A stretch of DNA of 64,000 bases, taken from the NCBI GenBank assembly GCA_002633005.1, contig NMRA01000232.1, positions 1 to 64,000 of the forward strand, in the 5' to 3' direction. Origin of the DNA: Phoronis australis (lineage: Eukaryota > Animalia > Phoronida). The number at the start of each line of letters is the position of its first letter. The first letter of the stretch is position 1. The position numbers were made by a program, and so were the translations under genes. A model generated the notes under the pieces. That model did no database searches. It had not been told where the DNA came from and saw only the letters and a list, made by a program, of their open reading frames with translations. This document shows, one piece after another, positions 5,015-41,544 of this stretch.

Positions 5015-5114
5015 AAAAAGGCGAGTAGTGGTTCTCCACATTGCTATAGAGAATCCAACTGCTTTCGTCTCAGTGGAAGAGTTTCTTGGTTTGCCCACTA
5101 CACCACGGCTCGCC
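5015..5114 (-). pseudogene. Array small RNA copy 1, with a 13-nt deletion in the 3' stem strand (probable pseudogene)
   Basis: Reads aaaaaggcgagtagtgg instead of aaaaagacgagtgtcggtttggagtagtgg, a deletion between two gagt direct repeats. Confidence 0.55.
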
Positions 5115-5712
5115 TAGTTATGCTGTCAAGAGAAAGTTGTATATGAAGCTTCGTCTGCTGTTGTGCAATCTAACATTGGAAGTGGTGCAACAGACTACAA
5201 CTGTGACAACTATTGGTGAAAATTAAATGAATGTAATGTGGTGCCAGTCCGGCGGAACACCTTATAACATATTAATACCGATTTAAGATCGACTGTCTCT
5301 CCAAAACCCTGCTGTCTGTATGTTTGTAAGTCTTCTGTAGGTTTCTGGAATTTCTGGAGATATAAGCCTGAGACACCGTCTAACGTCACTTTCGTTTTCT
5401 GACCTTCCTGTTAGTATTAAAAAGCACGGAGACGTTTGTGTAGGACCACCCAGTCGCATTAACGTACAGTGATTTATTTAAAACAAAATTGGAATACTAA
5501 ACATTTTAAACGTTATAAATGAACTTGCTTTGTCGCCCGGACGATTCCGCCATTCTTTCAGTTTCATTCCTTGTTGAGGTAGTGGAATTTCATTGACAAA
5601 CATCATTTAGTGAATTATGTTTTCAATAAAAATGGAAAAGTATCTGAAATACTGTTGAAAATTAACACGCACTGTGTTTACGTTTTTCATCACCAGCAAA
5701 TCTACACGTAGC

Positions 5713-5825
5713 AAAAAGACGAGTGTCGGTACGGAGTAGTGGTTCTCCACATTGCTATAGAGAATCCAACTGCTTTCGTCTCAGTGGAAGAGTTTCTTGG
5801 TTTGCCCACTACACCATGGCTCGCC
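5713..5825 (-). ncRNA. Putative Pol III small RNA (Y/sbRNA- or vault-like), copy 2
   Basis: Minus strand GGCGAG...GTAGTGGG...CCACTAC...CTCGTC-TTTTT, with A-box TGGTGTAGTGG. Confidence 0.7.
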
Positions 5826-6626
5826 TAGTTATGCTATCAAGAGAATGTTGTATATGAAGCTTCGTCTGCTGTTGTGCAATCTAACACAGGAAGTGGTGCA
5901 ACAGACTGCAACCGTGGCAGATTTTTGAAACGTTATGCCCGTCGGAACACATTAATACTGATTTAATATCGACAGTCTGTCCAAAACGGTGCAGTTAGTA
6001 CGTTTGTAAATCTTTTATGACTTTCTAGAATTTCTGTAAATATAAGCCTCTGACAGCGTACAACGGAACTTGTGTTTTTTACATTCCTGTTACCAAAAAG
6101 TAAGGAGTTGTGTTGTAGAAAGAACTAACTTTCTAGAGACCAAGCCAAAAATCAATCTTGAAGTGGCGACGAAGAGACGAAGTTGAGCTATCAACTTTGA
6201 CACCAATCGCAGCTTGACGTCACTACACCGTATTAAAACTGTTTAATCTGACTGCCCAATCTCCTCAGTCCGCGATGAGCAACTTTTCTTATGATAGATC
6301 TTGAAATAAACGATGAAAAGACATTTGTCTGCTTGTTCAGAAGCGTTTGTTATTTAAACTAACCAAAATGCATTAAATTACAATGCTGGAATTAAACAAT
6401 ATAAAATATTTAAAATTTAGTGACGTTTGACTTTGTCATTGTGTTCCAGCATTCTTTCAAATTCAATTATCTTTGAGGTAATGCGAAGTTTTCGACAACC
6501 ATCATTTAATAAATTATATTTTCAATAAAAGTTCAAAGGATTCTGAAATTCTATTTCAAAGGAACACGCACTGCGGACGAGTTTTTAAGTTTTTCATCAT
6601 ACGTTCAAAACAAGCCTACAAGTAAC

Positions 6627-6739
6627 AAAAAGACGAGTGTCGGTTTGGAGTAGTGGTTCTCCACATTGCTGTAGAGAATCCAACTGCTTTCGTCTCAGTG
6701 GAAGAGTTTCTTGGTTTGCCCACTACACCACGGCTCGCC
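6627..6739 (-). ncRNA. Putative Pol III small RNA, copy 3
   Basis: Same 113-nt cassette with intact stems and T5 terminator. Confidence 0.72.
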
Positions 6740-7357
6740 TAGTTATGCTATCGAGAGAAAGTTGTATATGAAGCTTCGTCTGCTGTTGTGCAATCTTCCA
6801 CGGGAAGTTGTGCAACAGACAGCACAATTTTGACATCTATTGGTGAAACTTACATGAATGTAATGTGATGGCAGTCCGGCGGAACACCTTATAACATATT
6901 AATACCGATTTAAGATGGACTGTCTCTCCAAAACGCTGCAGTCTGTATGTTTGTAAATCTCTTGCAGGTTTCTGGAATTTCTGGAGATATAAGCCTGAGA
7001 CACCGCCTATCTTCACTTTCGTTTTCTGACCTTACTGATACTATTAAAAAGCACGGAGATGTTTGTGTAGGATCACCCAGTCGCACTAACGTACAGTGAT
7101 TTATTTAAAACAAAATTGAAATACTAAGCATTTTAAACATTATAAATGAACTTGCTTTGTCGCCGGGACGATTCCGTCATTCTTTCAATTTCATTCCTTT
7201 TTGAGGTAGTGGGATTTCATTGATAAACATCATTTAGTGAATTATATTTTCAATAAAAATGGAAAAGTATCTGAAATAATATTGAAAATTAACACGTACT
7301 ACGGACAACGATTGTTTACGTTTTTCATCACCAAGTTCGAAGCAAGCCTGCACTAGT

Positions 7358-7470
7358 AAAAAGACGAGTGTCGGTTTGGAGTAGTGGTTCTCCACATTGC
7401 TGTAGAATTCAACTGCTTTCGTCTCAGTGGAAGTGAGTTTCTGTTTTTGCCCACTACACCACGGCTCGCC
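7358..7470 (-). ncRNA. Putative Pol III small RNA, copy 4 (small indels in the central domain)
   Basis: Same cassette; its upstream element reads TTTATATA at about -30. Confidence 0.65.
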
Positions 7471-8302
7471 TAGTTATGCTATCAAGAGAAAGTTGTATAT
7501 AAAGCTTCGTCTGCTGTTGTGCAATCTAACACAGGAAGTGGTGCAACAGACTACAACAGTGACATCTGTTGGTGAAAGGTTGTACCACTCGAAATATATT
7601 AATACCGATTTAATAACAAATGTCTGTCCAAAACGGTGCAGTTTGTACGTTTTCAAATCTTTTGTAGGTTTTTTTAATATCTGTTAATGTAAGACTCTGG
7701 TAATTATAACTGGACGTTTGTTTTCGAACTTTCGTGTTTCCAAAAAGTAAGGAATTGTGTTGGAAACATGCACGTGCGGTGTAGAAACAACTAACTTTCT
7801 AGAGACAGAGCGTAAAATAAACCTTGCATTTGTGTTGAATAGACAAAGAACCAAACGTGAGCGATCAACTTTGACCCCAGTAGCAGCCAAACGTCATCAA
7901 ACCGTTCTGTTTGATCTGATTGCCCTATCTCGTCAGTCTGCGATGAGCAACTTTTCATATGATAGATCTTGTAATAAACGATGAAAAAGACATTTGTCTG
8001 CTTGTTCAGAAGCGTTTGTTATTTAAACTAACCAAAATGCATTATATTAAAATGCTTGAATCAAAACACAATTCAAAATATTTAAAAGTTAGTGACGTTT
8101 GACTTTGTCATAGTGTGTCGGCATTCTTTCAAATTCAATTGTCTTTGAGGTAATGTAAAGTTTTCGACAACCATCATTTAATCAATTATATTTTCAATAA
8201 AAGTGAAAAGGTATTTGAAATATTATTGGAAAGGAACACGCTCTGCGGACAAACAGTTTCTAAGTCTTTCATCATTACGTTCGAAGCAAGTCTACACGTA
8301 AC

Positions 8303-8415
8303 AAAAAGACGAGTGTCGATTTGGAGTAGTGATTCTCCTCATTGCTGTAGAGAATCCAACTGCTTTTGTCTCAGTGGAAGAGTTTCTTGGTTTGCCCACT
8401 ACACCACGGCTCGCC
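8303..8415 (-). ncRNA. Putative Pol III small RNA, copy 5
   Basis: Same cassette with a few substitutions. Confidence 0.68.
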
Positions 8416-9244
8416 TAGTTATGATATCAAGAGAAAAGTGTATATGAAGCTTCGTCTGCTGTTGTGCAATCTAACACAGGAAGTGGTGCAATTGACTACA
8501 ACCGTGACGTCTAGTGGTGAAAGGTTGTACCAGTCGAAATATATTAATACGCCGATTTAACAACAAATGTCTGTCCAAAACGGTGCAGTTTGTATGTTTG
8601 CAAATCTTTTGTAGGTTTCTGGAATATCTGTTAATGTAAGACTCTGATAATGTATAAATGGACATTTGTTTTCGGACTTTCGTGTTTCCAAAAAGCCAGT
8701 AAGGAGTTGTGTTGGAAGCATGCACGTGCGTTGTAGAAACAACTAACTTTCTAGAGACAAAACGAAACATAAATCTTGAATTGGTGTTGAATAGACGAAG
8801 AACCAAACGTGAGCGATCAACTTTGACCCCAGTAGCAGCCAAACCGTTCTGTTTGATTTGATTACCCTATCTCGTCAGTCTGCGATGAGCAACTTTTCAT
8901 ATGATAGATCTTGTAATAAATGATGAAAAAGTTATTTGTCTGCTTGCTCAGAAGCGTTTGTTATTTTAACTAACCAAAACGCATTATATTAAAATGCTTG
9001 AATCAAAACACAATTTAAAATATTTAAAAGTTAGTGATGTTTGACTTTGTCATAGTGTGTCGGCATTCTTTCAAATTCAATTGTCTTTGAGATAATGTAA
9101 AGTTTTCGACAACCATACTTTAATCAATTATATTTTTAATAAAAGTGAAAAGGTACTTGAAATATTATAGGAAAGGAACACGCTCTGCGTACAAACAGTT
9201 TCTAAGTCTTTCATCATAACGTTCGAAGCAAGCGTGCACGTAGC

Positions 9245-9357
9245 AAAAAGACGAGTGTCGATACGGAGTAGTGGTTCTCCACATTACTGTAGAGAATCCA
9301 ACTGTTTTTGTCTCAGTGGAAGAGTTTCTTGGTTTGCCTACTACACCACGGCTCGTC
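9245..9357 (-). ncRNA. Putative Pol III small RNA, copy 6 (more substitutions)
   Basis: Same cassette; begins GACGAG, tetraloop is GUAA, one mismatch in the GUAGUGG helix. Confidence 0.62.
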
Positions 9358-10205
9358 TAGTTATGCTGTCAAAAGAAAGTTGTACACGAAACTTCGTCTG
9401 CTGTTATGCAATCTAACACAGGAAGTGGTGCAACAGACTACAACCGTGACATTTATTGGTGAAACGTGATACCCGTCGGAACACATTAATACCAATTCAA
9501 TATCGACTGTCTGTTCAAAACGGTGCAGTTTGTACGTTTGTAAAGCTTTTGTAATTTTCTAGAATTTCTGTAAATATAAGCCTCTGACAGCGTACAACGG
9601 GACGTCTGTTTTTGACTTTCCTGTTACCAAAAAGGAAGGAGTTGTGTTGGAAGCGTGCATTTGCGTAGTAGAAACAATTAACTTTTCTAGAGACCAAGCG
9701 AAAAATCAACCTTGAATTGGCGACAAATAGACGAAGTGCCAAAGTTGAGCGATCAACTTTGACACCAGTAGCATCAAACGCCAGCACACCGTTTCAAAAC
9801 TGTTTGAACCCAATTGCGCTACCTTATCAGTCCGCGATGAGTAACTTATCATATAGATCTTGAAATAAACGATGGAATAGACATTTGTCTACTTGTTCAG
9901 AGGTGTTTGTTATTAAAACTAACCCAAATGCATGCAAGTACAATGCTTTAATTTAAACAGAATTTAAAATATTTGATATTTATCAAAACGTTTTAGATGC
10001 AACTGACTTTGCCATTGTGTTCCGGCATTCTTTCAAATTCACTTGTCTTTGCAGTAATCCGAAGTTACTGACAACCATCCTTTAGTAAATTATATTTTCA
10101 GCAAATACGAAATGGTATCTGAAATTCTATTTGAAAGGAACACGCTCTGTGGACAACGAGTTTTTAAATTTTTCAACATACGTTCGAAGCAAGCCTGAAT
10201 GTAGC

Positions 10206-10318
10206 AAAAAGACGAGTGTCGGTTTGGAGTAGTGGTTCTCCACATTGCTGTAGAGAATCCAACTGCTTTTGTCTCAGTGGAAGAGTTTCTTGGTTTGCCC
10301 ACTACACCACGGCTCGCC
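10206..10318 (-). ncRNA. Putative Pol III small RNA, copy 7
   Basis: Consensus-like cassette; 9-bp GCAA-capped hairpin at 10236-10257. Confidence 0.72.
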
Positions 10319-10936
10319 TAGTTATGCTATCAAGAGAAAGTTGTATATGAAGCTTCGTCTGCTGTTGTGCAATCTTCCACGGGAAGTTGTGCAATAGACA
10401 GCACAACTGTGACATCTATTGGTGAAAATTACACGAAGGTAATGTGGTGGCAGTCCGGCGGAACACCTTATAACATATTAATACCGATTTAAGATGGACT
10501 GTCTCTCCAAAACGCTGCAGTCTGTATGTTTGTAAATCTCTTGTAGGTTTCTGGAATTTCTGGAGATATAAGCCTGAGACACCGCCTATCTTCACTTTCG
10601 TTTTCTGACCTTCCTGTTACTATTAAAAAGCACGGAGATATTTGTGTATGATCACCCAGTCGCACTAACGTGCAGTGATTTATTTAAAACAAAATTGAAA
10701 TACTAAATATTTTAAACATTATAAATGAACTTGCTTTGTCGCCGGGACGTTTCCTTCATTCTTTCAATTTCATTCCTTTTTGAGGTAGTGGGATGTCATT
10801 GATCAACATCATTTAGTGAATTATATTTTCAATAAAAATGGAAAAGTATCTGAAATAATATTGAAAATTAACACGCACTGCGGACAACGAGTGTTAACGT
10901 TTTTCATCATACGTTCGAAGCAAGCCTACACGTAGC

Positions 10937-11051
10937 AAAAAGACGAGTGTCGGTTTGGAGTAGTGGTTCTCCACATTGCTGTAGAGAATCCAACTGCTTT
11001 TGTCTCAGTGGAAGTGAGTTTCTTGGTTTGCCCACTACACCACGGCTCGCC
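10937..11051 (-). ncRNA. Putative Pol III small RNA, copy 8
   Basis: Same cassette with a 2-nt insertion shared with copy 4. Confidence 0.7.
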
Positions 11052-11641
11052 TAGTTATGCTATCAAGAGAAATTTGTATATGAAGCTTCGTCTGCTGTTG
11101 TGCAATCTTCCACAGGATGTGGTGCAATAGACGACAACTGTGACATCTATTGGTGAAAATTACACGAAGGTAATGTGGTGGCAGTCCGGCGGAACACCTT
11201 ATATTATATTAATACCGATTTAAGATCGACTGTCTCTCCAAAACGCTGCTGCCTGTATGTTTGTAGGTTTCTGGAATTTCTGGAGATATAAGCCTGAGAC
11301 ACCGCCTATCTTCACTTTCGTTTTCTGACCTCCCTGTTACTATTAAAAAGCACGGAGATGTTTGTGTATGATCACCCAGTCGCACTAACGTACAGTGATT
11401 TATTTAAAACAAAATTGGAATACTAAAATTTTTTAAACGTTAAAAATGAACTTGCTTTGTCGCCGTGACGATTCCGCCATTCTTTGAGGTAATGGGATTT
11501 TATTGATAAATATCATTTAGTGAATTATATTTTCAATAAAAATGGAAAAGTATATGAAATACTATTGGAAAGTAACATGCACTGCTGACAACGAGTGTTA
11601 ACGTTTTTCATCATAACGTTCGAAGCAAGTCTACACGTAGC

Positions 11642-11754
11642 AAAAAGACGAGTGTCGGTACGGAGTAGTGGTTCTCCACATTGCTGTAGAGAATCCAACT
11701 GCTTTTGTCTCAGTGGAAGAGTTTCTTGGTTTGCCCACTACACCACGGCTCGCC
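11642..11754 (-). ncRNA. Putative Pol III small RNA, copy 9
   Basis: Same cassette; continuous upstream similarity persists to about 11830. Confidence 0.7.
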
Positions 11755-12406
11755 TAGCTATGCTATGAAGGAAAGTTGTATATGAAGCTTCATCACCTGT
11801 TGTGCAATGTTTCACAGGAAGTGGTGCAACATACTTACATACTTCGATAGTTTAAAAATTCCGACATCTATTGGTGAACTATGCGACCCACTTGAAAGCA
11901 ATAAAAGACTAACGAGATCTGATATCGATTTCTTTACTGAGCGCGTACTATCAGTCTAAATCATAAAATTTCCGTACTGAATTTCTGCAAGTTAGCCTCT
12001 GAGCTGCCGGTACCCTTGAAGATATCTGGCATATCGCAGTTCAAAGGAGTGTGCCTTGGGACGTTGAGGGAGGCAGGATTTTGGAAATTCTATTTAAACT
12101 GAAGGCTATTAATACACGCACCACCTAATTGATGTTAGACATTTGTTTGAACACCAGTAACTGTCAACACCAGTGGAATATTTTCTAATTAGATTTTAAC
12201 CCTTGCAATCACTCTTTTGGTTGAACGCACCTTTCAATCTGCCTCGTGAATAAAAATCTCAACCTCTTTTATTTTTTAATTCACTATGAATTTTAATTAA
12301 TTGGTGCCATTTAGTACAACGTAAGCCTAAAATAAACTATCTATAATTTAGCCGAGATATTTCGTTCGTCGTTCAAATACAAACTCATGCATAGGCGTAT
12401 GGGGGG

Positions 12407-13192
12407 NNNNNNNNNNNNNNNNNNNNNNNNNNNNNNNNNNNNNNNNNNNNNNNNNNNNNNNNNNNNNNNNNNNNNNNNNNNNNNNNNNNNNNNNNNNNNN
12501 NNNNNNNNNNNNNNNNNNNNNNNNNNNNNNNNNNNNNNNNNNNNNNNNNNNNNNNNNNNNNNNNNNNNNNNNNNNNNNNNNNNNNNNNNNNNNNNNNNNN
12601 NNNNNNNNNNNNNNNNNNNNNNNNNNNNNNNNNNNNNNNNNNNNNNNNNNNNNNNNNNNNNNNNNNNNNNNNNNNNNNNNNNNNNNNNNNNNNNNNNNNN
12701 NNNNNNNNNNNNNNNNNNNNNNNNNNNNNNNNNNNNNNNNNNNNNNNNNNNNNNNNNNNNNNNNNNNNNNNNNNNNNNNNNNNNNNNNNNNNNNNNNNNN
12801 NNNNNNNNNNNNNNNNNNNNNNNNNNNNNNNNNNNNNNNNNNNNNNNNNNNNNNNNNNNNNNNNNNNNNNNNNNNNNNNNNNNNNNNNNNNNNNNNNNNN
12901 NNNNNNNNNNNNNNNNNNNNNNNNNNNNNNNNNNNNNNNNNNNNNNNNNNNNNNNNNNNNNNNNNNNNNNNNNNNNNNNNNNNNNNNNNNNNNNNNNNNN
13001 NNNNNNNNNNNNNNNNNNNNNNNNNNNNNNNNNNNNNNNNNNNNNNNNNNNNNNNNNNNNNNNNNNNNNNNNNNNNNNNNNNNNNNNNNNNNNNNNNNNN
13101 NNNNNNNNNNNNNNNNNNNNNNNNNNNNNNNNNNNNNNNNNNNNNNNNNNNNNNNNNNNNNNNNNNNNNNNNNNNNNNNNNNNNNNNNNNNN
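12407..13192. other. Assembly gap (N run)
   Basis: Continuous n characters. Confidence 1.
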
Positions 13193-13296
13193 CAAGTTCC
13201 TGCATTTCTACAGGGAACTTCGTTCTGCTTTAGGCTCAGACGAAGATTAGTAGCGTTTCATGAGTAAACTACTATACCACTACGCCACGGCTCACC
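13193..13296 (-). ncRNA. Divergent paralog of the array small RNA; 3' end lost in the gap
   Basis: Minus strand begins GGTGAGCCGTGGCGTAGTGG, versus GGCGAGCCGTGGTGTAGTGG in the array. It continues with three hairpins of unrelated sequence, the last capped by GAAA, and shares the upstream element TTGCACCA--TCC. Confidence 0.62.
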
Positions 13297-14340
13297 TCAG
13301 CTAATGATTAATACCTGATTTGATTACAAAGAACAATACAATACGTTTGCCGGACATGGTGCAATGTCAGGCTACCCGAACAACACGGCTCATTCACTCA
13401 TAATGACCACTCACTGAACAACGCATAGCTCATGGAGCTCAGCTGCAAATTAACACAAAAAAGCAGACGTCGTCTCATTCGTTACCGTTTACATACTGAA
13501 AAGTCGAGCCCCCATGTTAAAGTCTGGGTGCGCGCTTGCGGTCGATCCTATAAGAGTACCGGCGTGGTACGATCGAGACGTCGCATTTTCAGGTTAGTCA
13601 CAGTCGACCGTCATGACCATGTCATTGGGCAACGGCAAAGGCAAGCGGCGTCCGAGTCGGCTGGTGACGGCTATGAGCCGACCGGCCGGGTTTCCGGCCC
13701 CGCGCCCGGCTCCGCCAACACGGACACGACTACGGCCCCCCGCCGGGCGGCCCGCACGGTCCGCCACCGCCATGACTACGGCTCAGTGCAGAACTGAGAT
13801 GTCTCTGCATGTTGGACCCGGGGTCATGTGTCCAAGTCATACCTTATTTAATGTTCTGCCTGGCGTGTATGATCGGGACTGAGTTTGGTGCCCCAGCACC
13901 GGCAACTCAGTCACACTGCCGGAGCCCGCTCAGCGAGACATGCTCATCAAATGTGTGAGTGAGCTGTGCTGTTCTGGTAGCCTGGCTGCAATACCGTGCT
14001 GGTCCCGACTCAGTAGGATAGCGTTTAGTGTGGACGAAAAATTGCAAAAAACTCAAGATCATATAAGTCTTCTCGAGAGGCTGTCATGCGTTATAATGAA
14101 AGCATGTGATCTTACTAACTTTGCAATGAGTGTTTTCTGACGCGGCAAAGGCTGCCCCCAAAACGATAGGTTTCTAGAGTGAATCAGCATACTTTTTGCA
14201 AATGAATGCTCCTCGTTGCCCTGAGCACTGCGCATGGGTATCTGCTACTTCCGTTGGCTATGGAGTCGTAAATTTGTAGCGGGTGACGGTTCTTTTAACA
14301 GGTTTCCGACCTGCCTTGGTCACGAATAAGTAAATACATC

Positions 14341-14347
14341 TATATAA
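14341..14347 (+). promoter_or_regulatory. Candidate TATA box of the EF-hand gene
   Basis: TATATAA about 250 bp upstream of ATG 14595, within a CpG-richer region. Confidence 0.35.
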
Positions 14348-14594
14348 GGACGTCAGAACGCATCAAAAGGACGTTTGTTAGGTTTTTGGAGCATTTGAGG
14401 GCTATTATTATTCACACTTTGCCAGTTGTCAAGGTCAACATCGGAGTTGTTCCTGGGACGTTTTATCACCGTGAGCAAGTCAGAAGTTTGCGATGGTTGC
14501 ACAGTTGGAAAACCAAGACCGAATTTGAGTTTAGCTTTTTATTGGAGCCCCAACGATAAACATTTAGTGCCTCGAACATGACAACTCCAACGCA

Positions 14595-17500
14595 ATGTTG
14601 TCTCTGAAGATGTCTTTAAATGGGTCACCACAATCGTTCTTCCCTTCTATTGCCCCTTCTAAGGGTAGTCCAGAGCGATCAACATCGCAAAAGCGTGAAA
14701 CTGGTGTTTCGGGATCTGATGGTGCAAGTGCCGTAAGTGCTTTCTCTCCCACCAAAGATGGCCGGGCAACGGAGAAAAGTCTTCCAAAATTAGTAAATGA
14801 CCGTGCTGAAACATCTACTAGTCCCGAGGAGCGCAGCCCGAGACTCAAAGTCACCACGGTAAATTTAGAGTGTGTTTTACTGAGAAATTGGTGTATTTTG
14901 TCTGGGTGTTAAAATGAAATATTATTCAAGCTATCCTAACCATCAGGTATACCCAATTTCAAATGTCTGAAGAGTCATTTCTGCTCACTAGCTGAAGCAG
15001 AGAATCTTACTGTTGTGTAAGCTTGAGGGAGCTTTATTTAGACTTACTTCCTTCCCCACAACTTGTTAGGGCACCAGCTTAAATCTTTCATGTTGCCCAA
15101 ACTGTATATGAGATTGTATATAGCCTTGGTAGAGCTTTATACTTGTATTAAGATATACCGAGAACTCTTATATAGATCTATCCATTTTGGTAAACAGTGA
15201 GCGACATAAGGTCTAATACATGGCAAAGTTGATGCTATTAAAAACTATACCCTTCTTTGAGTATTTTAGATTTATACCTATGCTAAAAGTTGTTATTGTT
15301 CCTAGGCTAAAACAAAATTCTACATTTGTTTCTGTTCAAGTGGGATTTTTCAATTATCACTATGAAACTAGTTAGCACCTTCAGGAAATGGATTCGACTA
15401 CAAACTGATATTTTTAAAAAAGGCATATTAGCAAGATTAAATTTTTGAAGCATGTGATGTAATTAAAATGGCCCATAAACTGTAAGGGTTTGTTGAAGGT
15501 GTGAAAAATGTGGCAGGTCCGAGCCTGGGAATGAATGGTGTATTTAGTTAACTGTATGAAATTGATCCCCACACTATGACAACTGGCTGTATCAATATTT
15601 AATCACAGTTTATTGGTAAAGCCGTATCTAGCAGTTGCTAATGTGTTAATTGGTTAGCAAAGACTGCACTTTGTCTTTGTACAAAAGACTATCCATTTAT
15701 CACATTCAAGGCTCATTAGTGCTGATATATCCAAACTGGAATTAGAATTGGATTTAGTGATTAATCGATGTGGGTGTCATGTTGTTTTGGATTCTTAATA
15801 GAGAAGAATAGAAGAAAAAGAACTCTTTGCTTCGTTTTTATTACTTTGAAAATATTAAATAATAAATGAACTCTTGTGAAATTTTGTGTGTTTGAAATTT
15901 TCTATTATATGGTTGTATACAATTTTTATTATATTTTCAAAGTTGTTATTCTTTTGTTTAATAATGAAAACTGCTTTGAAATTTTGTAGTTTGATCTGCT
16001 GTGGACTAGACTGCAAAATTTTTCCACCATACCTAATAATTGTGTCTGCAGGAAAAGAAAGCCAGAAATTAATATTACATTAAATAGTAATGATTGTGAA
16101 ACTGTCCACATGTGGAGGTGTAATGTATTCAGTATTGAATATCTCTATTTCAGGTTCAACAAATCAGCAAGTCCAGTGATGATCAGATGGACCATGAGTT
16201 CTATCCGGAACCGTTGCCATATCAACCTCAATTATTCAAGTGAGTCTGCTTTCTAAACTCAGTTACCATGTAATAGTAAGCTTTCTTAAGGAAATTAAGA
16301 ATAAGTTTTTGTTGTTTGCTTTGTTGTTAATTGTAATTTATTTACTCATTCAAGTGCTTAAAAATTCTAAGGGGTCCAACACTGGACTGAAATGGGTTGC
16401 TTTAAAGGTAGATACAGGCTGTTCAGAGGCTCTTGGTATCTCCTCAGTCCTTTCTTAGTATCCAGGCCTGAACTGTGTAACTTCAAGATGAAAAATAAGA
16501 AAAAGTGTTTACAGTACATTTCAAGCTCCAGTCATTTTTGAGAATGAGCTCAAATGTCATTCTGGATGGCTTTCATTGTAAGACTTGTTCATTGAAAGGG
16601 GAGTAATAGTTTGACTAAAGTGGAACCTCTTTGTTGTCACTTACTGTGCCAACATTAATGCACATACAGGCTTTGTGTCACCTCTTTATAGGACTGTTGT
16701 TTGCGTAAGATTTCACATACCAGATGTCATTTTCTGCTCGTGATAGTGAACAATTACCTTACTTTTGTCAAGTTTCCTTCTAGACAATAGCTTGAGGTGT
16801 GAACACACGAAAACAGGTTCACGTGGTAATACTTGGAAATAGTCGCGGAATAGTGAACGGTGATATACTGTTCTGTGACTGGAATGATTTCACCACATCT
16901 TCTGGGAAACACGTTGCAGAATTCTTCATTTTCATGTTAGACCAAAATTCTGTGGATGCTAAACAGGAGTCTTGTGCACCATGCCATCAAACACTGTTAT
17001 GTCACATGGCTAGCTTTTATACAGTGTTTGGTTGTTCCTTGAGCATCAGCTCTTGTTCCCATTTTGAATATTTGGGAATGCATTAGACTTGATATGCTCT
17101 CAAAAGTGTAGTGCTTGGAATTAACCTGTAATTACCTGTCACAGACAAAGTTATTGATGATGTATTGCATCTACCATCTCCACAATCTTCCATGATCCTG
17201 GCAACTGGGCACAATATACCAAGAGTGATTTTGCCTGTGGCTGTGAGGTGTTTAGTGTTGGTCTCTCTATTGACACATCTGTATTGGTTTGTTGCAGATA
17301 TTCCAAAGGTGTCCAAGAGTGATTTTTATCTTATTTATTCAAGGTGCAAATAACCCGTCATTAATGCTCGGTCTGTCGAAATCACTTTTGATTTTGACTA
17401 TTTATCATTGTAAAATTTAAGTCTCATCTTTTTCCTTGCTTAGACAGGAAATGATTTCTAGGCTTGAGAAGAACTGATAGTTCATTAATGATCTCCCCTG

Positions 17501-26500: not shown

Positions 26501-29500
26501 AAGAACTTCAGTTGCAATTATTGTTTAATTGGCTGCTAGTAATAATCACTATTGGTTTCTAAGATTTAAAAGGAAACAATTGGTGTCAGTGTTGAAAAAT
26601 ATGTCATTGTTGAGTAGAGCAGGGCTATAGAACTGCAAAATGTGTTGTATTTTTTTTGAGTTCATTAGAAATGCCGATTCCGAACATTGGCTTTCAGTCT
26701 TTCAGTAAAAGTAAGTGAAGTCTAAGCCGATGACCTTACTATGCTTAAAATAGCCACCGGCTGCTTGGTACATTGGCTTTTATCTTTCCTAACAATGCGT
26801 TGGACTAGGACAACTGAGGTTGTGTGTTTGACTGTATGTATAAGGTGTGATCTCATGTGATCTCACATACACACCTCTGTCACCACTGATGTCACCTTAA
26901 ATCAAAACACATAGAGCATTAGTTACTTGAAGCGAACATCTCCAACTTCAATTTCCAATAGATCCAATTTTGCTGTGATGAATGCGGTTGACCACAGAAA
27001 CAATTAATGACTTCCACTGTATTCTTCGCACAGACTACGATTTCAAAGATGTCTTTTGCTGATCCATTTATAGTCGCCATCTTTCAATAGTGAAACCTAA
27101 TTTGGTGCTCCTTCCTGTGTAAAGTGCATGGGGTGCATTGATGCCGAAAGAGATCCACATTAACGTACTTCTCATTTTGTGTCTGTTTACACTGTTGGGT
27201 TTATTTGGTTAATGTTTTTTCACCTTTTTGTTTTAGTGAGTCGGAAATCTGCACCATCCATTGCCAAGCCACGCACAACTCCACAACTATTAACTGAGTC
27301 AGAAGAGGAAGACAATAACAATGTTAATCCAAGTTGGACCGTTGCCAACAGGTGAACTTTTTGCTTTTCAGCCTTTTATTGCGCATATGCCTTACTGGTT
27401 TGAAGTTAAGTGGCTATAAACCAGAAGGAAAAAATGATTTAGACCTTTTTCCGTTTCAAAATTGATCTCAAATTGTTCTTTACTCAAATTGGAGGTGGTT
27501 TTGGACTTAAAAGAACTGCCGATTCATTATTGCTCGAAACGAGACCCTGCAAGTTGGCTTTTTGTGGTTATTTATTTTAGGCGTTGAACGTGATCTCAAG
27601 CATTAATGAAGTGACAGATTTTTACAAGCTCAGAAAACACGTTCGATTTGACTCTTGCTCAAGTTGAGATCTATTTTGTATCCAGTGAAATAGTCTAAAT
27701 CAGACAGAATATATGTTTATAGATGCTTTAAGTGATGTCCTACAAGAACAATTAAGGCGCCAGATTATTATGAGTGAATCTAATGCTGGCACTAAGATGT
27801 TCGAAAATGTTCAGAAGTGGTGACTTCTTGTTTATTTTATGTGCTGCAGTTAGGCTGAGATGTGTAATGTATGTGTCAGGTTGCAAGCATCTATTAAGAA
27901 CTATTCATACCCGACTGAAACTCATCTGGATGGTTGACACTATAACGGCACATGTGCATGTCTTTTAGGGCGGAGTCTGAGATGGAGATTGACGTCCCAC
28001 CTGAGCCCATCCCCCAGAGCTTATCCATACCCAACTCCATGGCCGCCAGTCCAGCAAAAGCTGTCACTCCAAACCCTCTCAAGGTAACGTGAAGTGTTAA
28101 TATATATAGCCTGGATGGACTCATCACATCAAACTTGTTCTCAGCACATCATGGTGAGACAGAGATGTGCTACTTTCACCAAGTACATGATTTGCATAAT
28201 GTTAAGTGGCTGTGATGTAATCTAAGAGACTTCATTTGCATTTACCCGTGAGAATAGCGTATATACGGGTAATCCACTGGCATTCCATGTGGTTCGAATG
28301 TTCGCTATTGTTTATGCGAGCATGCGCAGACAGTCTGTTTGTAAGTCATTCATGCTGATTCAGTTTGCGATGTACTGTCGTGTAAATACGACTTAAGTGG
28401 AGCAAGTCCGTTCATGCTTTGTGGACAATAAATAAACGTGATAGGACTGGGCTGTTTGTGACATTTGTAAATTGGAGATTTGTAATTTTGATGCACTCCA
28501 TAATTTTCTGAGTTGGTGTGCCTTCTTGGTCAGATAATGCAACATTGGTTCATACTCATTTTATCCGTTTTCAAAATTGTTCTGAAAACTGCCTTGATGT
28601 GACTGCACCTTAAATCCAAGCCATACTTTGATTTTCTTATGTTTTTCATTTAATTTTTGTGGCTTCTGTATTGCATATGTTTTCTGAAATGTTTTGGCAC
28701 AAAGTTAGAATATTTATGCGTAGTGTTGGTTTTGTATCATTTTTTGGGAAATCGTGATGGTTTCATTAACTCACTTGCTTTTGTATCAGTTTGTGTTATG
28801 TTTAGTAAGTATGGATATTGAAACCCTTTCTCATCATACCGGTTATTGCTACAGGTGCCTGATATGACTATTCTGGTGTCAGATGAAGAGCACGGTCTTC
28901 TTAAAGAAACATTCCATCGTCTTGACAACGACAAAGATGGTCATCTGACTTTTGTTCAGGCAAAAAATATTATACCGAAAGAAGCCAGTGCTTCAGAGGA
29001 GAAATACCTGAAACAGGTTTGTTTGTGGTTATTCTGTTGTCAAAAATATTAATATGTTTGCTGATAACAAATCCCGTGAACATCAGAAACTCGGCCGGTT
29101 TCACTGGACCTTGTACTTCGTCAATAGATTTGTGCAATTTCTGCTGTCAAGAAGCCTGTTCATCAGAGAATCTGGTCTAAGGTCTTATCGTATGGCTTAG
29201 GGTAATTACGGCATCACCAATGGCTTCACAGCAATAAAGCACTGGGTGAAATAGATTGATATATTGTGGACTGGTGATTTTTCGAATTGTTTAACTTCTG
29301 GAATTGTATTCCTTGTAAAAAGTTGCTTGGATCATTTTTAACCAGAAGAAATACAATAGAAATTAGCCAAAATCTATGTCTTTAGTTTCAAATCTCTGGC
29401 ACCCGTTGATGAACGGTTTTAGCAAACCTGTGAATGGTAGTAGATAATTGATCTTCGAGTACTAACGGCGGACAAAAGAGCACAGGACTAGATTGATATC

Positions 29501-31728
29501 ACAACTAGCCTCAATTTAGAGACCCCTGTTGTCTGCTGTTGAAACCAAATGGGAGTTTTTTATAATGAGCATGCAACACATGGCAACGCTGTCATTTGAT
29601 GTGTTTACTCAGGCTTGGATGATACCTTTTTATAATTTTCCTTGAACAGACTAGTGTGAATGGTTTGTGAAGCTTGTATTTTGTTATTTATGCATGGCTA
29701 AACTTGTACTGGAGGTGATCAATTGATTTCAGGTGTACGACATCACCAGTGCGAGCACATTCTTTGGTTTGAATGAGTTTATAACACTGTCGTGCCTTTG
29801 TCAAGAGATAACCAAACTCGGGTATGTGTGATTAGTCTCTCACTTAAGTATCACAAATGACGGAAATTTACATTCTTGTTTTGTATCGTGACTGTTGTTC
29901 CATGCATACTATGCGAGATTAGATCTCTTAATGGTTTATGGTTCAGTTTTGTTGGAATACTTGACAACGTTCCACTTAACATTGGTACCATGTTGTAAAC
30001 TTTGTATTTTTCAGTGATGTTGCGAAAGATGCATTTAACCACCTTAACTTTCAAAGTCTGCATGAGTCCATCATACAGTATGTGGTGAGTGATCTTTTGC
30101 AGTCAGGATGATCAATTGTTTGTTTCTCCCTTATGTGTTGGTTTATAATGTCTCCGTAGATGGTAGCACAAGGTTTGTGGCATTCTGTGAAGTCTGAGCA
30201 TTTTGGATTTTTCTTTTGCGCATCCGGTATTGCATTTTGAACAAAAGCGGATGTAATAAAATTTTCATTTTCTTTATTGAAAATTGAATTACACCAAAAG
30301 CACCGTGATTATAATACTAATAGTAACAGTAGTTCTGCAAGTACATAATATATATTATTTGATAATTGTGTGTTACTTTTTATTATTCTATTGCTGCCGA
30401 AGCAGTGGTTTCCTAATAGACAATTTGTTCTTTGCAGGAACTTTTTGAGTCCAAAATAAATGAAGGGAAAGGGTCGATTTCACTGGACAGTTTAGACGAC
30501 ATTTTATGCACAGGTCTAGGGAAGGACAAGACAACAGACCAGACTCTCCTGTTAGAAATCAGACGTTTAGTCAACCCGGTAAAAATGCAGTGTTTTTATG
30601 TCTGGAGTGTATTGACTTTTTACAACTCTGTGGTAATGGTCGCATATAACTTGCCTGAATTTTGTGAACCAGTTTTCTCCACTGAATAATGGGCATCAAA
30701 CTGGTTCTCAAAATACGGGCACGTTATATCTGACTATTGCCCAACTTTCTTAACCACTAGTGTTCAGTCATCTGTTTAAATACGCATAAAAAATAGACAC
30801 TAGACATCTGTGTCATGTATAACACTGGTGTTGTTCAACTTGTTTTTGACATCATACAGCACTCAAATGTGGCAAATAAATGTTCAAGTTTTATCTGATA
30901 AAGGGTGTTGAATCAACCTAAGCCCGTAGAACTAGTAAAAACTGTTGAACCTGTGGCATCCAGGCTATCTCTAATTGGCACTGAAATTGAACCTGTGGCT
31001 TCCAGGCTATATCTAATTTGCACTGAAGTTCACTTTCTCGGATCGAGGTCTGGTTGACTGTCGTTGTTCTGCTATAAAATATACTTATGCGTACTGTTAC
31101 AACCAACTTTTGTATGAACAGTCAGTTGCCACCAACTTGTTTGATGTTATTTTGAGATTTTCTTTGTTCTCTTTAAAATTTGGATATTCATAGATGAGCA
31201 TGTTACGCCACTGACTTACAAACATTTTACAAACATTTTACAAACAATTTACAAACATTTTACAAACATTTTACAAACATTTTACAAACAATTTACAAAC
31301 ATTTTACAAACATTTTACAAACATTTTACAAACATTTTACAAACATTTTACAAACATTTTACAAACAATTTACAATTTACAAACATTTTACAAACATTTT
31401 ACAAACATTTTACAAACATTTTACAAACAATTTACAAACATTTTACAAACATTTTACAAACATTTTACAAACATTTTACAAACCTATTGAGTATTTATTT
31501 TAAGTAACATTTTTGTTTTTGTATAAATAGTTACTGTAAATGTTACACGACCTGACACAAGGTAACTAAAGGTAAATAGAAACCTATGGTATTGGTGCTT
31601 TGTTCTTACATCTGTAGTGTACTGTAACTGAACTGTCATTGCTTTCATTGCAGGATATGGAGGACTCTGTCAGCAAAGTTAAGTTTCTGGCTCATATTCC
31701 ATATTTTCTGACATTTGAGGAATCATAG
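14595..31728 (+). CDS. Uncharacterised ~631-aa protein with Ser/Pro-rich disordered segments and a C-terminal EF-hand-like domain (15 exons)
   Basis: Exons 14595-14858, 16154-16239, 18039-18153, 18297-18322, 19536-19739, 20517-20612, 21916-21971, 23545-23826, 27237-27351, 27969-28083, 28855-29016, 29733-29821, 30015-30084, 30438-30578 and 31654-31728. All are GT-AG with compatible phases, giving one open frame of 1896 nt ending ...FLAHIPYFLTFEES*. EF-hand loop in LKETFHRLDNDKDGHLTFVQ. Confidence 0.85.
21240..21744. mobile_element. Non-autonomous DNA transposon (MITE) in an intron
   Basis: Perfect TIR cagggcttggaat / attccaagccctg, flanked on both sides by aatatt. The interior is CpG-rich with repeated ttccgc motifs. 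Confidence 0.85.
25312..25468. mobile_element. Short MITE
   Basis: Imperfect TIR cagtggcggatt / gatctgcccctg, with direct repeat aatct on both flanks (25307-25311 and 25469-25473). Confidence 0.7.
30947..31030. repeat. 42-bp tandem duplication
   Basis: gaacctgtggc.tccaggctat.tctaatt.gcactgaa present twice. Confidence 0.85.
31216..31483. repeat. 11-bp minisatellite (ttacaaacatt)n, ~24 copies
   Basis: Directly visible, with occasional acaaacaattt variants. Confidence 0.97.
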
Positions 31729-34059: not shown

Positions 34060-34625
34060 TCTCTCAACATTTAATAACTCAGAGAGTGCATGATAGCTAT
34101 AAACACTAAGTGTAAATCACAACAAACTCATTCAAATGAGTCACATTTTTAACATCCATAACTCAGCTAGTGCATGATGGCAGTAAATACTAAGTGCAAA
34201 TCATAACAAACTCATTCAAATGAGCCACAGACTCAATATCCATAACTCGGTGAGTGCATGATAGCTGTAAACACTAAGTGTAAATCACAACAAACTCATT
34301 CAAATGAGTCACATTTTTAACATCCATAACTCAGCTAGTGCATGATGGCGGTAAATACTAAGTGCAAATCATAACAAACTCATTCAAATGAGCCACAGAC
34401 TCAATATCCATAACTCGGTGAGTGCATGATAGCTGTAAACACTAAATGTAAATCACAGTGAACTCATCCAAATGAGCTGCAATCTCTTAACACTCCATAA
34501 CTTAGCGAGTGCATGATAGCAGGAAACACTAAGTGTAAATCACAACAAACTCATGCAAATGAACTGCAATCTCTCAACACTCCAAATCTCAGCGAGTGTA
34601 TGATAGGAACACTAAGTATAAATCT
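34060..34625. repeat. ~83-85-bp tandem repeat, ~7 copies, partly organised as a dimeric higher-order repeat
   Basis: Recurring cataactc...agtgcatgat...actaagtg.aaatca.aacaaactcattcaaatgag. Confidence 0.93.
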
Positions 34626-38594: not shown

Positions 38595-41544
38595 CTATGG
38601 TTGGTTTTCTTGAGAAGTTCCAGACTTTGATGATGGTGCTTCACTACTGCTCCCCGTAGAGGACTTTGTGACCTTTGGACCTGCCTTAGCCTCGTTCTCA
38701 CGTTGCCGCTGCTCCATCGCTTGCTTTATCCGAGCTTGAACAATCTGCAGATGCTGCTGTATGTAAGTCTCCTGGGGAGACAACTTCAAAGTTTTGATAA
38801 GGCACTTTTCTGCCCTCAAGATGTCGCCTCTCTCAACAAAGCAGACACAGAGATTGTGATTGGCCTGCACATCTAATGGTTTTGTCTCAAGAATTTTACG
38901 GAAATTCTGAAAGAGTAAAGTGTTAAGAAAAATTTTAGAAAAGCATACAGAACCTATATCATAAGTCAAATTTTGGAACTACAAATGCACACATATTAGC
39001 GACACTGTGTCTGATCTTGCCGACTATAGTTTGGTTACTGAAATTGTGGCCACTAGGTGAAGATTTGGCCACACAACACGACAGATCATCGATGGTCCCG
39101 TCTCACATGTAAGAGAGTAGAAATATCAGATCCACCTACTTGTTCAGTGATATAGTTTCTCTACTACTAGTGCCTCATTTTACGCTCTGCTGAACCAATC
39201 CTCCTCATAATGCAAGATAACAACACCCATTGATTCAGGAAAACGCATCCAGCGATGTTAAGATGACTAAAAACAGCAGACTCGTTTGTGGCTCCATAAC
39301 TGGGATAGCAATGCTGAGACATATGCATCAACAAAGGCGGTTTCATTTCACCACCACATCCAAACAGAGTGCCCTGTCCTCATGTGGCACACAATATGAG
39401 GGCTCGTGATGGTGCTTAGTATGTAACAACTCTTTTCTTCTCGCATGTAACCACTTTTAATGAATGCCCAACATGGATAACTGTATCTCTCAAGAAATTT
39501 CTCGGGTGTTTGTCTCTGACAGGTTCGTTATGCAGAGAGTGGAAATCAGGAAAATAAAATAAGATATTTATTGGCGTCAGGTACTACAGAAATTTGCAGA
39601 CCGTTTTTCCAAAATGTCACTGGATATTCGTGAAAAGAGACTTTGAATATTCCGCTTTTGACTACTCAGGTTAACTCTCAATATACCTGTTCAGCAGTGT
39701 CCACATCCTTCAGGTGATTGATGTTAATGTCCCCCATGAGAATCAGGGCTTTGTAATGGTTGGGGTCTTGCTGCAACAGAAGGATGTCAAGTTTTCTTTG
39801 ATGAGACAGTATACAGCATGACATAAAGAAGTAGAAACATTGGGAAATTGGAATTCAGGACTTTCTAATAATAATAACAAGAGTTTTGCTGCAAGGGAAG
39901 GCAAACTGTATTTAATTGGGTCATGTGACCATGCGTTTCAGTAAAATTTAGCAAATTTTAAAAAGGTTTAGTGACAACAAAACAATGATATCACTAACAA
40001 ATGAAATTTTATTTGATATGAAGGTCCAAGGTGACATCTCAAAAACAATACTACAATTTTCTAAAATAACGTTTTCTTGTTTTTGAAAGTCCATCATGAA
40101 AAAGTGGGACATTTTAAAACCAATTCTTACCAGCGATTTATAGAACAGTGCATAAGGGGTAGTAATTGAAAGTATTATATAAATCCGATGAGCTGTTTCT
40201 GAGCTATAATGTTCCAAAGTTAGCCTAATTTGGATATTTTTGAAAGAGGTGTATTTAGTCAATTATCTAAACAATTATAGATTTTAACTTGTTAAAAGTA
40301 AAGATTTTCTGATAGAAAACCTACGAAATTTGTTTTAGTTTTTACCAGCTGCGGTAACCATCAATTGGGTCATGTGACCATGTCCATTAAAAAGAAATTC
40401 CTTAAAAGTGTTTGAGAAAACAGTGTATAATCATATCATCTGAAAGTTTCATTTTAATTCGATCAGATTTTCCTGAGATATGATGTTCTGAAATTAGACA
40501 TTGGACATTTTCCTAGGTTCCTACATAACCATATTTGCCTCACTGATTTCCATTATATTCATAAAACGAGTCGAAATTTTGGGCTGTTGCAAATAATACC
40601 AACAAGAAGTATGCATCATATGATGATTTAACAAGTAGGTCAAGTTTATGTCTTACCAACGACATGTGCCCTGTTTCATGAAAAGTGACCTACAGTGTAA
40701 GGTAGAAACTACATCTTGTGCTCCCAGACGATTTCTTAAAAATAATTAAATGTCGCTTCACCAAAAATACTTAGTCTCTGAGAATTTTCCCCATGACTGC
40801 TAATTACTGGGATAATTGGTTTAAATTATTTCTAGATTGTGACATGCTAATAATAACATGGCTAAAACTTTATTCAATAATTGTGAAGACGAAGCCTAAG
40901 GACAAATGTCCGACTTGAGCCTGAAGTCACTCTCCATGAAACAGACCTCAGAACAAGAAAGTCATTCCCTAACTTATCTCTTGACAAAATAAACGAACAA
41001 TTGAACACATCAGGAGATGTCCAAGCTCCTTCAAATAAAACTCTGGTTGTTTGGTTTGCAAGGCTTTATGGATCTGTCAGGCATTGTAACTTCACATGGA
41101 CAAACACATTTAAAAGCATTTTGCCAGTAAAAGCAGCCAAAAGCCTGTGAAGGATGGTGATTGACAAGCGCTGATTTCTGCTCCAAAAATATCCAGAAGT
41201 AATAAAACTGCATTCAGTACCATACACCACTGTGTATACAATGACTGTTAGGGTTATCATCTAGCAGTTTAAAAGAATAGGTTGCAACCTGTAAATTCAA
41301 GGTTTTAACAAAATCTGACACTTGACTGCCATAAAAAAACTTAAAATTGTGGCAAATGGTCAGTCCAATGCTAAAAAATTCTGAGTTAAGAGTTGTTTCA
41401 CCTCCTCCCCCAAACCCAACTTTTACTCCTCATACTTACAGACAAAAGCTTCTGTAAATAAGGTACAGCGTCTAGGGGCCTATTGACGTCATTCACCAAC
41501 ATGAGCGCAAGGTTGAACAGAGCACTACGGAACTTTTCATCCAG
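38595..41544 (-). CDS. TMTC3: Protein O-mannosyltransferase TMTC3, last three coding exons (TPR region)
   Basis: Minus-strand exons 41544-41440 (LDEKFRSALFNLALMLVNDVNRPLDAVPYLQKLLS), 39770-39687 (QDPNHYKALILMGDININHLKDVDTAEQ) and 38906-38595 (NFRKILETKPLDVQANHNLCVCFVERGDILRAEKCL...YIQQHLQIV...*). All are phase 0 with AG/GT ends. The FRSALFNLAL, HNLCV and YIQxHLxIV motifs match the TMTC3 C-terminus as I recall it. Confidence 0.92.

Follow-up and report, generated by a model that had tools for sequence, protein, structure and literature searches.

What kind of gene is repeated on the minus strand near the start of contig NMRA01000232.1 of the phoronid Phoronis australis (GenBank assembly GCA_002633005.1), the first 64,000 nucleotides (nt) of which, hereafter the window, we analyzed here? 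A sequence-only reading had described at this locus a tandem array of nine candidate RNA polymerase III (Pol III) genes for small structured RNAs, and had likened them to Y RNAs or stem-bulge RNAs (sbRNAs), on the one hand, and to vault RNAs, on the other. Judging from sequence features, these genes very probably constitute a real, selected family of structured RNAs. The array fails membership in both proposed families, and the mode of action that suits it best would be that of a vault RNA: by analogy, a vault-type function exerted through TEP1 by a cluster of ten members, which are likely Pol III RNA genes, would be our preferred reading, at a probability of roughly 0.42.

The tandem arrangement of the array was borne out by blastn, by the coordinates, and by the spacing of the copies. 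One copy compared with the window gave nine strong matches within 5015-11756 and weak ones at 13225-13297. Copies 1 to 9, all on the minus strand, occupy positions 5015-5114, 5713-5825, 6627-6739 (copy 3, the reference used below), 7358-7470, 8303-8415, 9245-9357, 10206-10318, 10937-11051, and 11642-11754, the higher coordinate of each being that of its 5' G, and are spaced 703-961 nt from start to start. The core consensus sequence derived earlier was correct and, as had been claimed, the first T4 of each of the nine copies is the terminal T5. The proposed length of ~113 nt holds for seven of the nine copies, with copy 8 being 115 nt and copy 1 being 100 nt long, and the proposed GG start holds for all copies except copy 6, which begins with GA. 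What had been overlooked is a diverged tenth paralog, two interior hairpins (denoted P2 and P3), and a conserved upstream block of ~80 nt.

Conserved unit, likely promoter, and predicted fold

The spacers between the copies fall into two types, short (590-618 nt) and long (801-848 nt), which are 69-78% alike between types, whereas the cores are 88-99% alike between copies. In the alignment of copies 2-8, the mean identity is 0.952 for the core, 0.914 for the upstream 80 nt, and 0.769 for the flanks, with 16 of the 113 core columns being variable versus 185 of the 400 flank columns, which are not independent of each other. Beyond the array, similarity to the spacers is confined to ~82 nt upstream of copy 9 (80-87% over 76-82 nt) and one 22-nt piece next to it, and in this comparison within the window, no spacer homology was found past the T5 of copy 1, where homology across the array stops. 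Thus, the conserved unit extends from about -80 to the terminator, with the upstream block of copy 9 (11755-11835, minus strand) forming its outer edge; on sequence grounds, this extent appears to resemble that of a gene plus its promoter. The conserved block upstream of copy 3 (6740-6820, minus strand), an equivalent of which precedes each of the nine copies, is the likely promoter.

The A-box, for which the consensus is TRGYNNARNGG, had been placed at +10 to +20, and indeed, an exact match starts at +10 in eight of the nine copies and in the paralog, with one mismatch in copy 6; the eight further exact matches in the window all lack the GG start. Farther upstream, the motif TTGCAYMA is present in 10/10 genes. 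In the nine copies, it takes the form TTGCACMA and is found at -76 and -54 (-75 and -53 in copy 9), against a background of 9 sites in 111,200 nt, and the paralog carries, at -68 (13350-13364, minus strand), the motif TTGCACCA, which is common to the nine copies. Seven copies have a TATA-like box, CATATAC, at -31 or -30, and the other two have a variant of it; the paralog has none.

The minus-strand RNA of copy 3 is predicted to fold (-38.7 kcal/mol, z-score -4.23) into a terminal stem (1-6/103-108, in RNA numbering), an upper stem (14-20/84-90), hairpin P2 (38-61), and hairpin P3 (62-83) with a GCAA loop. For the eight copies that were folded (all except copy 7), the z-scores range from -1.97 to -4.23; for 13 control windows from the spacers, the minus strand gives -1.11 to +1.95 and the plus strand -2.04 to +1.22. 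Pairing between the two ends and within the GUAGUGG/CCACUAC stem, both noticed in the sequence-only reading, is part of the minimum-energy fold, with pair probabilities of 0.97-1.0; for the predicted panhandle of copy 3, they are 0.79-1.0. Among the nine copies alone, 98.7% of the 297 cells pair.

P2 and P3 are the best-supported structure, owing to the tenth paralog (13193-13296, minus strand), which begins at 13296, across an N gap (12407-13192), with a perfect A-box at +10, and is cut by the gap at its 3' end, after 104 nt. A covariance model built from the nine copies matches the interior of the paralog at an expectation value (E) of 0.0046, the sole match below E 1 besides the nine, and detected no other dispersed copy in the remaining ~55 kb of the window. 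Copy 3 and the paralog are identical at 18 of the first 20 nt and at 36 of 49 interior positions, and their interior similarity score is 24 vs. a maximum of 23 in 2000 shuffles. In P2, the closing pairs, the 9-nt loop (AGACGAAAG / AGCCTAAAG), and a one-base bulge are alike in the nine copies and the paralog, with two pairs changed on both sides; in P3, there are one double and two single pair-keeping changes, and the GNRA loop is changed from GCAA to GAAA. Altogether, all 15 counted pairs of P2 and P3 are kept between copy 3 and the paralog through 8 substitutions, including three double changes, for which the simulated chance is 0.010 with the same positions, 0.0025 with transition bias, and 0.000065 with random positions; these figures are only indicative because the alignment register was set by hand once the folds had been seen, MAFFT put one gap elsewhere, and a single comparison is involved. 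Two pairs were excluded from the count: 65-80, of which the paralog lacks one base, and 37-62, which copy 3 leaves unpaired.

Outside these hairpins, the handle of the paralog seems to be different. The four bases at its cut end could form pairs with bases 3-6, and three of the four agree with positions 103-106 of the nine copies, which suggests that the end stem follows directly after P3; the paralog, with its end hidden by the gap, would then be without the distal CCACUAC strand. In the truncated sequence, the A-box strand is predicted to pair locally with nt 31-47, with probabilities of 0.87-0.97. Copy 1, in which 13 nt are deleted, is intermediate, and GUG-CAC pairing is absent from its predicted fold. 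Thus, the family-wide parts are the end stem, the A-box, P2, and P3, but not the Y-like upper stem. At the 5' end of the paralog (13273-13288, minus strand), two A-box-like units of 8 nt follow each other, and the first of them pairs with an insert, likewise of 8 nt, farther downstream, as if the predicted helix had been lengthened on both strands.

Overall, the earlier view that the locus holds a selected, structured cluster of Pol III-type genes and not a passive satellite gains support from the conservation of core and promoter over spacers, the compensatory changes, and the bias of stable folding toward the minus strand.

Relation to vault RNAs, tRNAs, and Y RNAs

Vault RNAs are described as panhandles of 80-150 nt that possess box A, box B, and upstream elements and whose center is variable (PMC7058938, PMC9179338, PMC7916137), the handle being conserved (PMC9179338). 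They are clustered, and in invertebrates, box B is poorly kept and upstream elements are added (PMC8824774, PMC7058938). According to PMC8824774, box B of the invertebrate candidates comprises only GTTC or one-letter variants; TTACTTCG follows box A in four of the five Fasciola candidates (with one change in the fifth), and also in Lottia and Helobdella; and the Rfam Vault family includes mollusc and annelid members. The corresponding part of PMC550661 gives no sea urchin vault RNA sequence.

The array shares with the vault RNAs a length within this range (100-115 nt), a T-run end (9/9 copies), a box A close to the 5' end, on the 5' side of a predicted panhandle, a weak box B, for which the pattern of the invertebrate candidates is too loose to be decisive, clustered paralogs, and upstream elements. 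By eye, the 5' strand is alike at 15 of 21 positions, with two gaps, to that of Fasciola hepatica vtRNA1 (PMC8824774), and both this RNA and the nine copies have a 6-bp (base pair) end stem followed by a bulge on the 3' side. The differences are that the array lacks GGTTACTTCG and a match to RF00006, that its center is conserved where that of vault RNAs is variable, and that the paralog, in which only the end stem of the panhandle is indicated, seems to pair box A locally and not with the 3' end. Thus, of the earlier likening to vault RNAs, the handle and the promoter layout stand, and fit better than the Y RNA/sbRNA comparison, but because GGTTACTTCG and a conserved B-box are missing, the family is not filed as vault RNA.

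The whole window gave no Rfam match at the gathering score, and for three stretches, even a threshold relaxed to E<=10, with models including Y_RNA, Vault, and sbRNA, brought up no member of the Vault, Y, sbRNA, or tRNA families, the only matches being weak, unrelated ones to small nucleolar RNAs, small RNAs (sRNAs), and microRNAs. The family is therefore uncatalogued in Rfam, as had been suspected. No description of this sequence was found in the literature by full-text word search, which cannot match sequences, and it is possible that it has previously been listed as a vault or Y candidate. Pattern scans yielded 0 matches in viral contigs, 0 in prokaryote genomes, and 1 in metagenome contigs, the last one, obtained with a combined 5' and 3' pattern, being a bacterial tRNA-Asp, with a 5' arm match and a chance 3' part; because the scanned collections hold little animal DNA, the blank results say little. 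This tRNA-Asp(GTC) (locus L001, 1526-1600, minus strand) lies beside a reading frame that, by eye, is serine-recombinase-like, and the site is probably one of mobile-element integration, unrelated to the array.

Rodent BC1 and primate snaR RNAs are lineage-specific RNAs transcribed by Pol III. The alternative that survives best is that the array represents an analogous, tRNA-derived family that serves a purpose of its own and has no relation to vaults or Ro60; on a refolded tRNA frame, the P2 loop and the GNRA hairpin would bind another protein, for example, in translation control. The failure of both the vault and Y signatures, the conservation of the interior, and the recent, lineage-restricted tandem amplification all fit this alternative. 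Moreover, copy 3 matches bacterial tRNA-Asp at 22 of 23 nt in the 5' arm and at 10 of 12 in the T-arm box, the B-box-like stretch; both are shifted by the same two bases, and this common register points to a tRNA-like origin, a trait shared with BC1, snaR, and the heads of tRNA-derived short interspersed elements (SINEs). Nevertheless, the copies are not tRNAs: ARAGORN called 0 genes at its default (100), 95, and 85% settings, with noise-level calls at 75% and below, and neither an anticodon arm nor a canonical T-loop is present. For the paralog, a four-way junction resembling a cloverleaf is predicted, in which P3 stacks directly on the end stem; for the truncated sequence, its energy is -23.7 kcal/mol, whereas the optimal fold reaches -30.2 kcal/mol, so that this prediction depends on bases hidden in the gap. 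Given, in addition, the resemblance by eye of the handle of the nine copies to those of invertebrate vault candidates, we regard this alternative as somewhat unlikely.

No RNA sequencing run was indexed as containing the stretch, and transcripts were sought in four runs chosen by species label (X1-X4, with X1-X3 being raw-read and stranded), covering about 35 million records, or 18-19% of each run, from paired 151-nt standard libraries; such libraries lose short RNAs, so that scarcity of reads neither shows nor excludes a mature RNA. The organism is represented in X1-X3, in all of which a plus-strand exon at ~14.25-14.86 kb was covered, with the first mates on the minus strand. In the region 6300-7200, X1 gave 4 reads over 6610-6826, all from minus-strand RNA, two of which fit only partly; X2 gave 1 partial read, in the spacer, and X3 and X4 gave none. 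These reads bear on the possibility that the array consists of tRNA-derived SINE heads or source genes, or of a dead Pol III gene caught up in local tandem duplication, with no RNA function. The tRNA-like 5' arm, the B-box relic, the near absence of reads, and the damage to copies 1, 4, and 6 are compatible with such an origin. However, the four one-strand reads, in contrast to the partial reads of both strands on a 35-nt dispersed repeat at 13367-13401, sit poorly with a high-copy SINE, and the dispersed copies expected of a SINE were not detected in the other ~55 kb of the window. Furthermore, the copies end at an internal T5 stop without an A-rich or repeat tail, the upstream motif is common to the paralog, and there are compensatory changes, all of which make this explanation improbable.

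Finally, the RNAs could be diverged Y RNAs or sbRNAs that bind Ro60 via the lower stem and carry the GUG-CAC replication motif in the upper stem. Like Y RNAs (RF00019) and nematode sbRNAs, they are clustered, about 100 nt long, with paired ends, a lower and an upper stem, and an oligo-U tail; GUG-CAC is paired in the upper stem of the 113-115-nt copies (2-9), although copies 5 and 6 show single changes; of C7/C8, one stays unpaired, facing a 3-nt bulge; and the GUG-CAU pairing that the paralog can form locally fits the A/GUG-CAC/U motif of sbRNAs. The Ro motif is GUCCG, which the array misses by 2 of 5 letters. Furthermore, its 6-bp end helix is broken by a 3-nt 3' bulge before an unpaired C, and for UUAUC the best match has 2 mismatches and is not beside the stem. 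The Ro60 helix is described as having 7 bp with a single bulged C, with a GUG-CAC upper stem and, in sbRNAs, also UUAUC (PMC4726728, PMC4450293), and Y RNAs were, as of 2009, known only from vertebrates and nematodes and thus unaccounted for in most invertebrates (PMC2770079). The array also differs in its two conserved interior hairpins, where Y RNAs have a variable loop, and in its distal GUAGUG/CACUAC upper stem, which seems absent from the paralog and is not family-wide. With no match to the Rfam Y or sbRNA models, no full distal strand in copy 1 and the paralog, and the A-box alone sufficing to explain GUAGUGG, the earlier assignment to Y RNAs or sbRNAs fails, and even a diverged relationship is the least probable of the explanations considered here.

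Three other candidates were rejected on inspection. For a hammerhead ribozyme, CUGA and GAAA are too near each other, and GAAA is not retained in copies 5-9 and the paralog; the Sm motif of spliced-leader or Sm-class RNAs is missed by at least 2 letters; and for an RNA from the plus strand, the z-score of copy 3 is only -0.61, with the G-U pairs becoming A-C.

Several observations weigh against the preferred reading, that of a selected RNA gene family with a vault-type function. RF00006 gives no match even at E<=10 despite its mollusc and annelid members, and even the closest match to the vault motif GGTTACTTCG after box A deviates at 5 letters in copy 3 and at 4 in the paralog. Candidate B-boxes carry at least one mismatch in the nine copies (for that at +56 of copy 3, at the invariant C) and at least two in the paralog. 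Between copy 3 and the paralog, the interior is kept and the upper handle is apparently rearranged, the reverse of the vault pattern. The covariation is that of one sequence pair, registered by hand after the folds had been seen; among the nine copies alone, it is uninformative, with double changes in 0 of 34 pairs and a shuffle control that does not discriminate. Gene conversion could contribute to the likeness of the cores and, alone, can homogenize them. As to expression, no mature RNA was seen, with 4 core reads in ~35 million records from libraries prone to lose short RNAs; the core reads of X1 are only 90-95% alike to the locus, and some reach ~87 nt upstream of the predicted start; and the paralog had no reads in these runs. 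Lastly, no relatives were found outside the window in the metagenome, viral, and prokaryote scans.

Individual copies and neighboring genes

Three of the nine copies are damaged. In copy 1, the 13 nt were deleted from the 3' strand between two ACTC repeats, and the RNA would end with CTCGCC-T5; a G-U to G-C change turns its end stem into a perfect 6-bp helix, and the copy may still be functional as a short form. Copy 4 has a 2-nt insertion and a 2-nt deletion, and the weakest fold (z-score -1.97). Copy 6, in which the TATA-like box is changed in addition to the A-box mismatch, is possibly decaying.

Directly upstream of the paralog, 34-nt inverted repeats that are 85% complementary (13368-13401 and 13951-13984) flank a GC-rich interior and are 549 nt apart. 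A 35-nt dispersed repeat that comprises the left arm (13367-13401) attracted partial reads of both strands with differing loose ends. The element at 13368-13984 looks like a small non-autonomous DNA transposon, with the partial reads on its left arm coming from other loci.

On the plus strand, positions 1669-2810 encompass the last exons of an SLC6 sodium:neurotransmitter transporter gene, with matches to dopamine, glycine, and proline transporters and a Pfam SNF match (E 4e-5) below the cut-off. The plus-strand exon at ~14250-14860 is expressed and spliced; over about 550 nt, the reads depart from the assembly at 15 listed sites, so that the species is highly polymorphic. The same gene may include a weak EF-hand exon at 28822-29049. 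On the minus strand, a terminal exon containing TPR repeats (38598-38978; weak Pfam TPR_12/TPR_19 matches) may come from a TMTC-type gene, which it resembles. Two minisatellites consist of 24.7 units of 11 nt (31216-31483) and 6.5 units of 84 nt (34074-34624).

Proposed mechanism and biological meaning

Under the vault-type reading, transcription would begin with TFIIIC reading the A-box, while TTGCACMA and the TATA-like box at -31 would make up for a B-box that is weak or lost. Pol III would start at the G and stop in the T5, giving an RNA of 100-115 nt with a tRNA-like fold, the oligo-U end of which La would bind. The 5' and 3' ends would pair into the 6-bp terminal stem, and the A-box strand would be hidden in a duplex with a complementary strand, which lies distally in the nine copies and locally in the paralog. 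A protein-binding or tertiary core would be formed by P2, the 9-nt loop of which is fixed, together with the GNRA hairpin P3, and the resulting stem-closed scaffold would be held by La and a protein with the TROVE domain, most likely TEP1. One paralog would have been amplified nine-fold in tandem, its copies being kept alike by selection and probably by gene conversion.

Although the weight of these findings is limited to one locus in one animal, known from sequence and four reads, they touch on a wider problem. In many animals that possess Ro60 and vault proteins, the RNA partners have yet to be found because searches lean on short, vertebrate-derived motifs. A family that combines a vault-like handle with none of those motifs, and has interior hairpins backed by covariation, offers a new search model. 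Tentatively, and with doubt, the array can be taken to exemplify a class of Pol III RNAs in animals that is as yet undescribed and derives from a tRNA frame, its fixed elements being the end stem, the hairpin with the 9-nt loop, and the one with the GNRA loop; in this class, the same promoter strand is hidden either distally, as in the nine copies, or locally, as in the tenth, and the class may be the missing ligand of a TROVE protein, TEP1 or Ro60, in those invertebrates for which searches by motif yield neither vault nor Y RNA. If it is bound neither by TEP1 and the vault nor by Ro60, the family, with its nine-fold amplification pointing to a dosage need, would represent a new class of small RNA.

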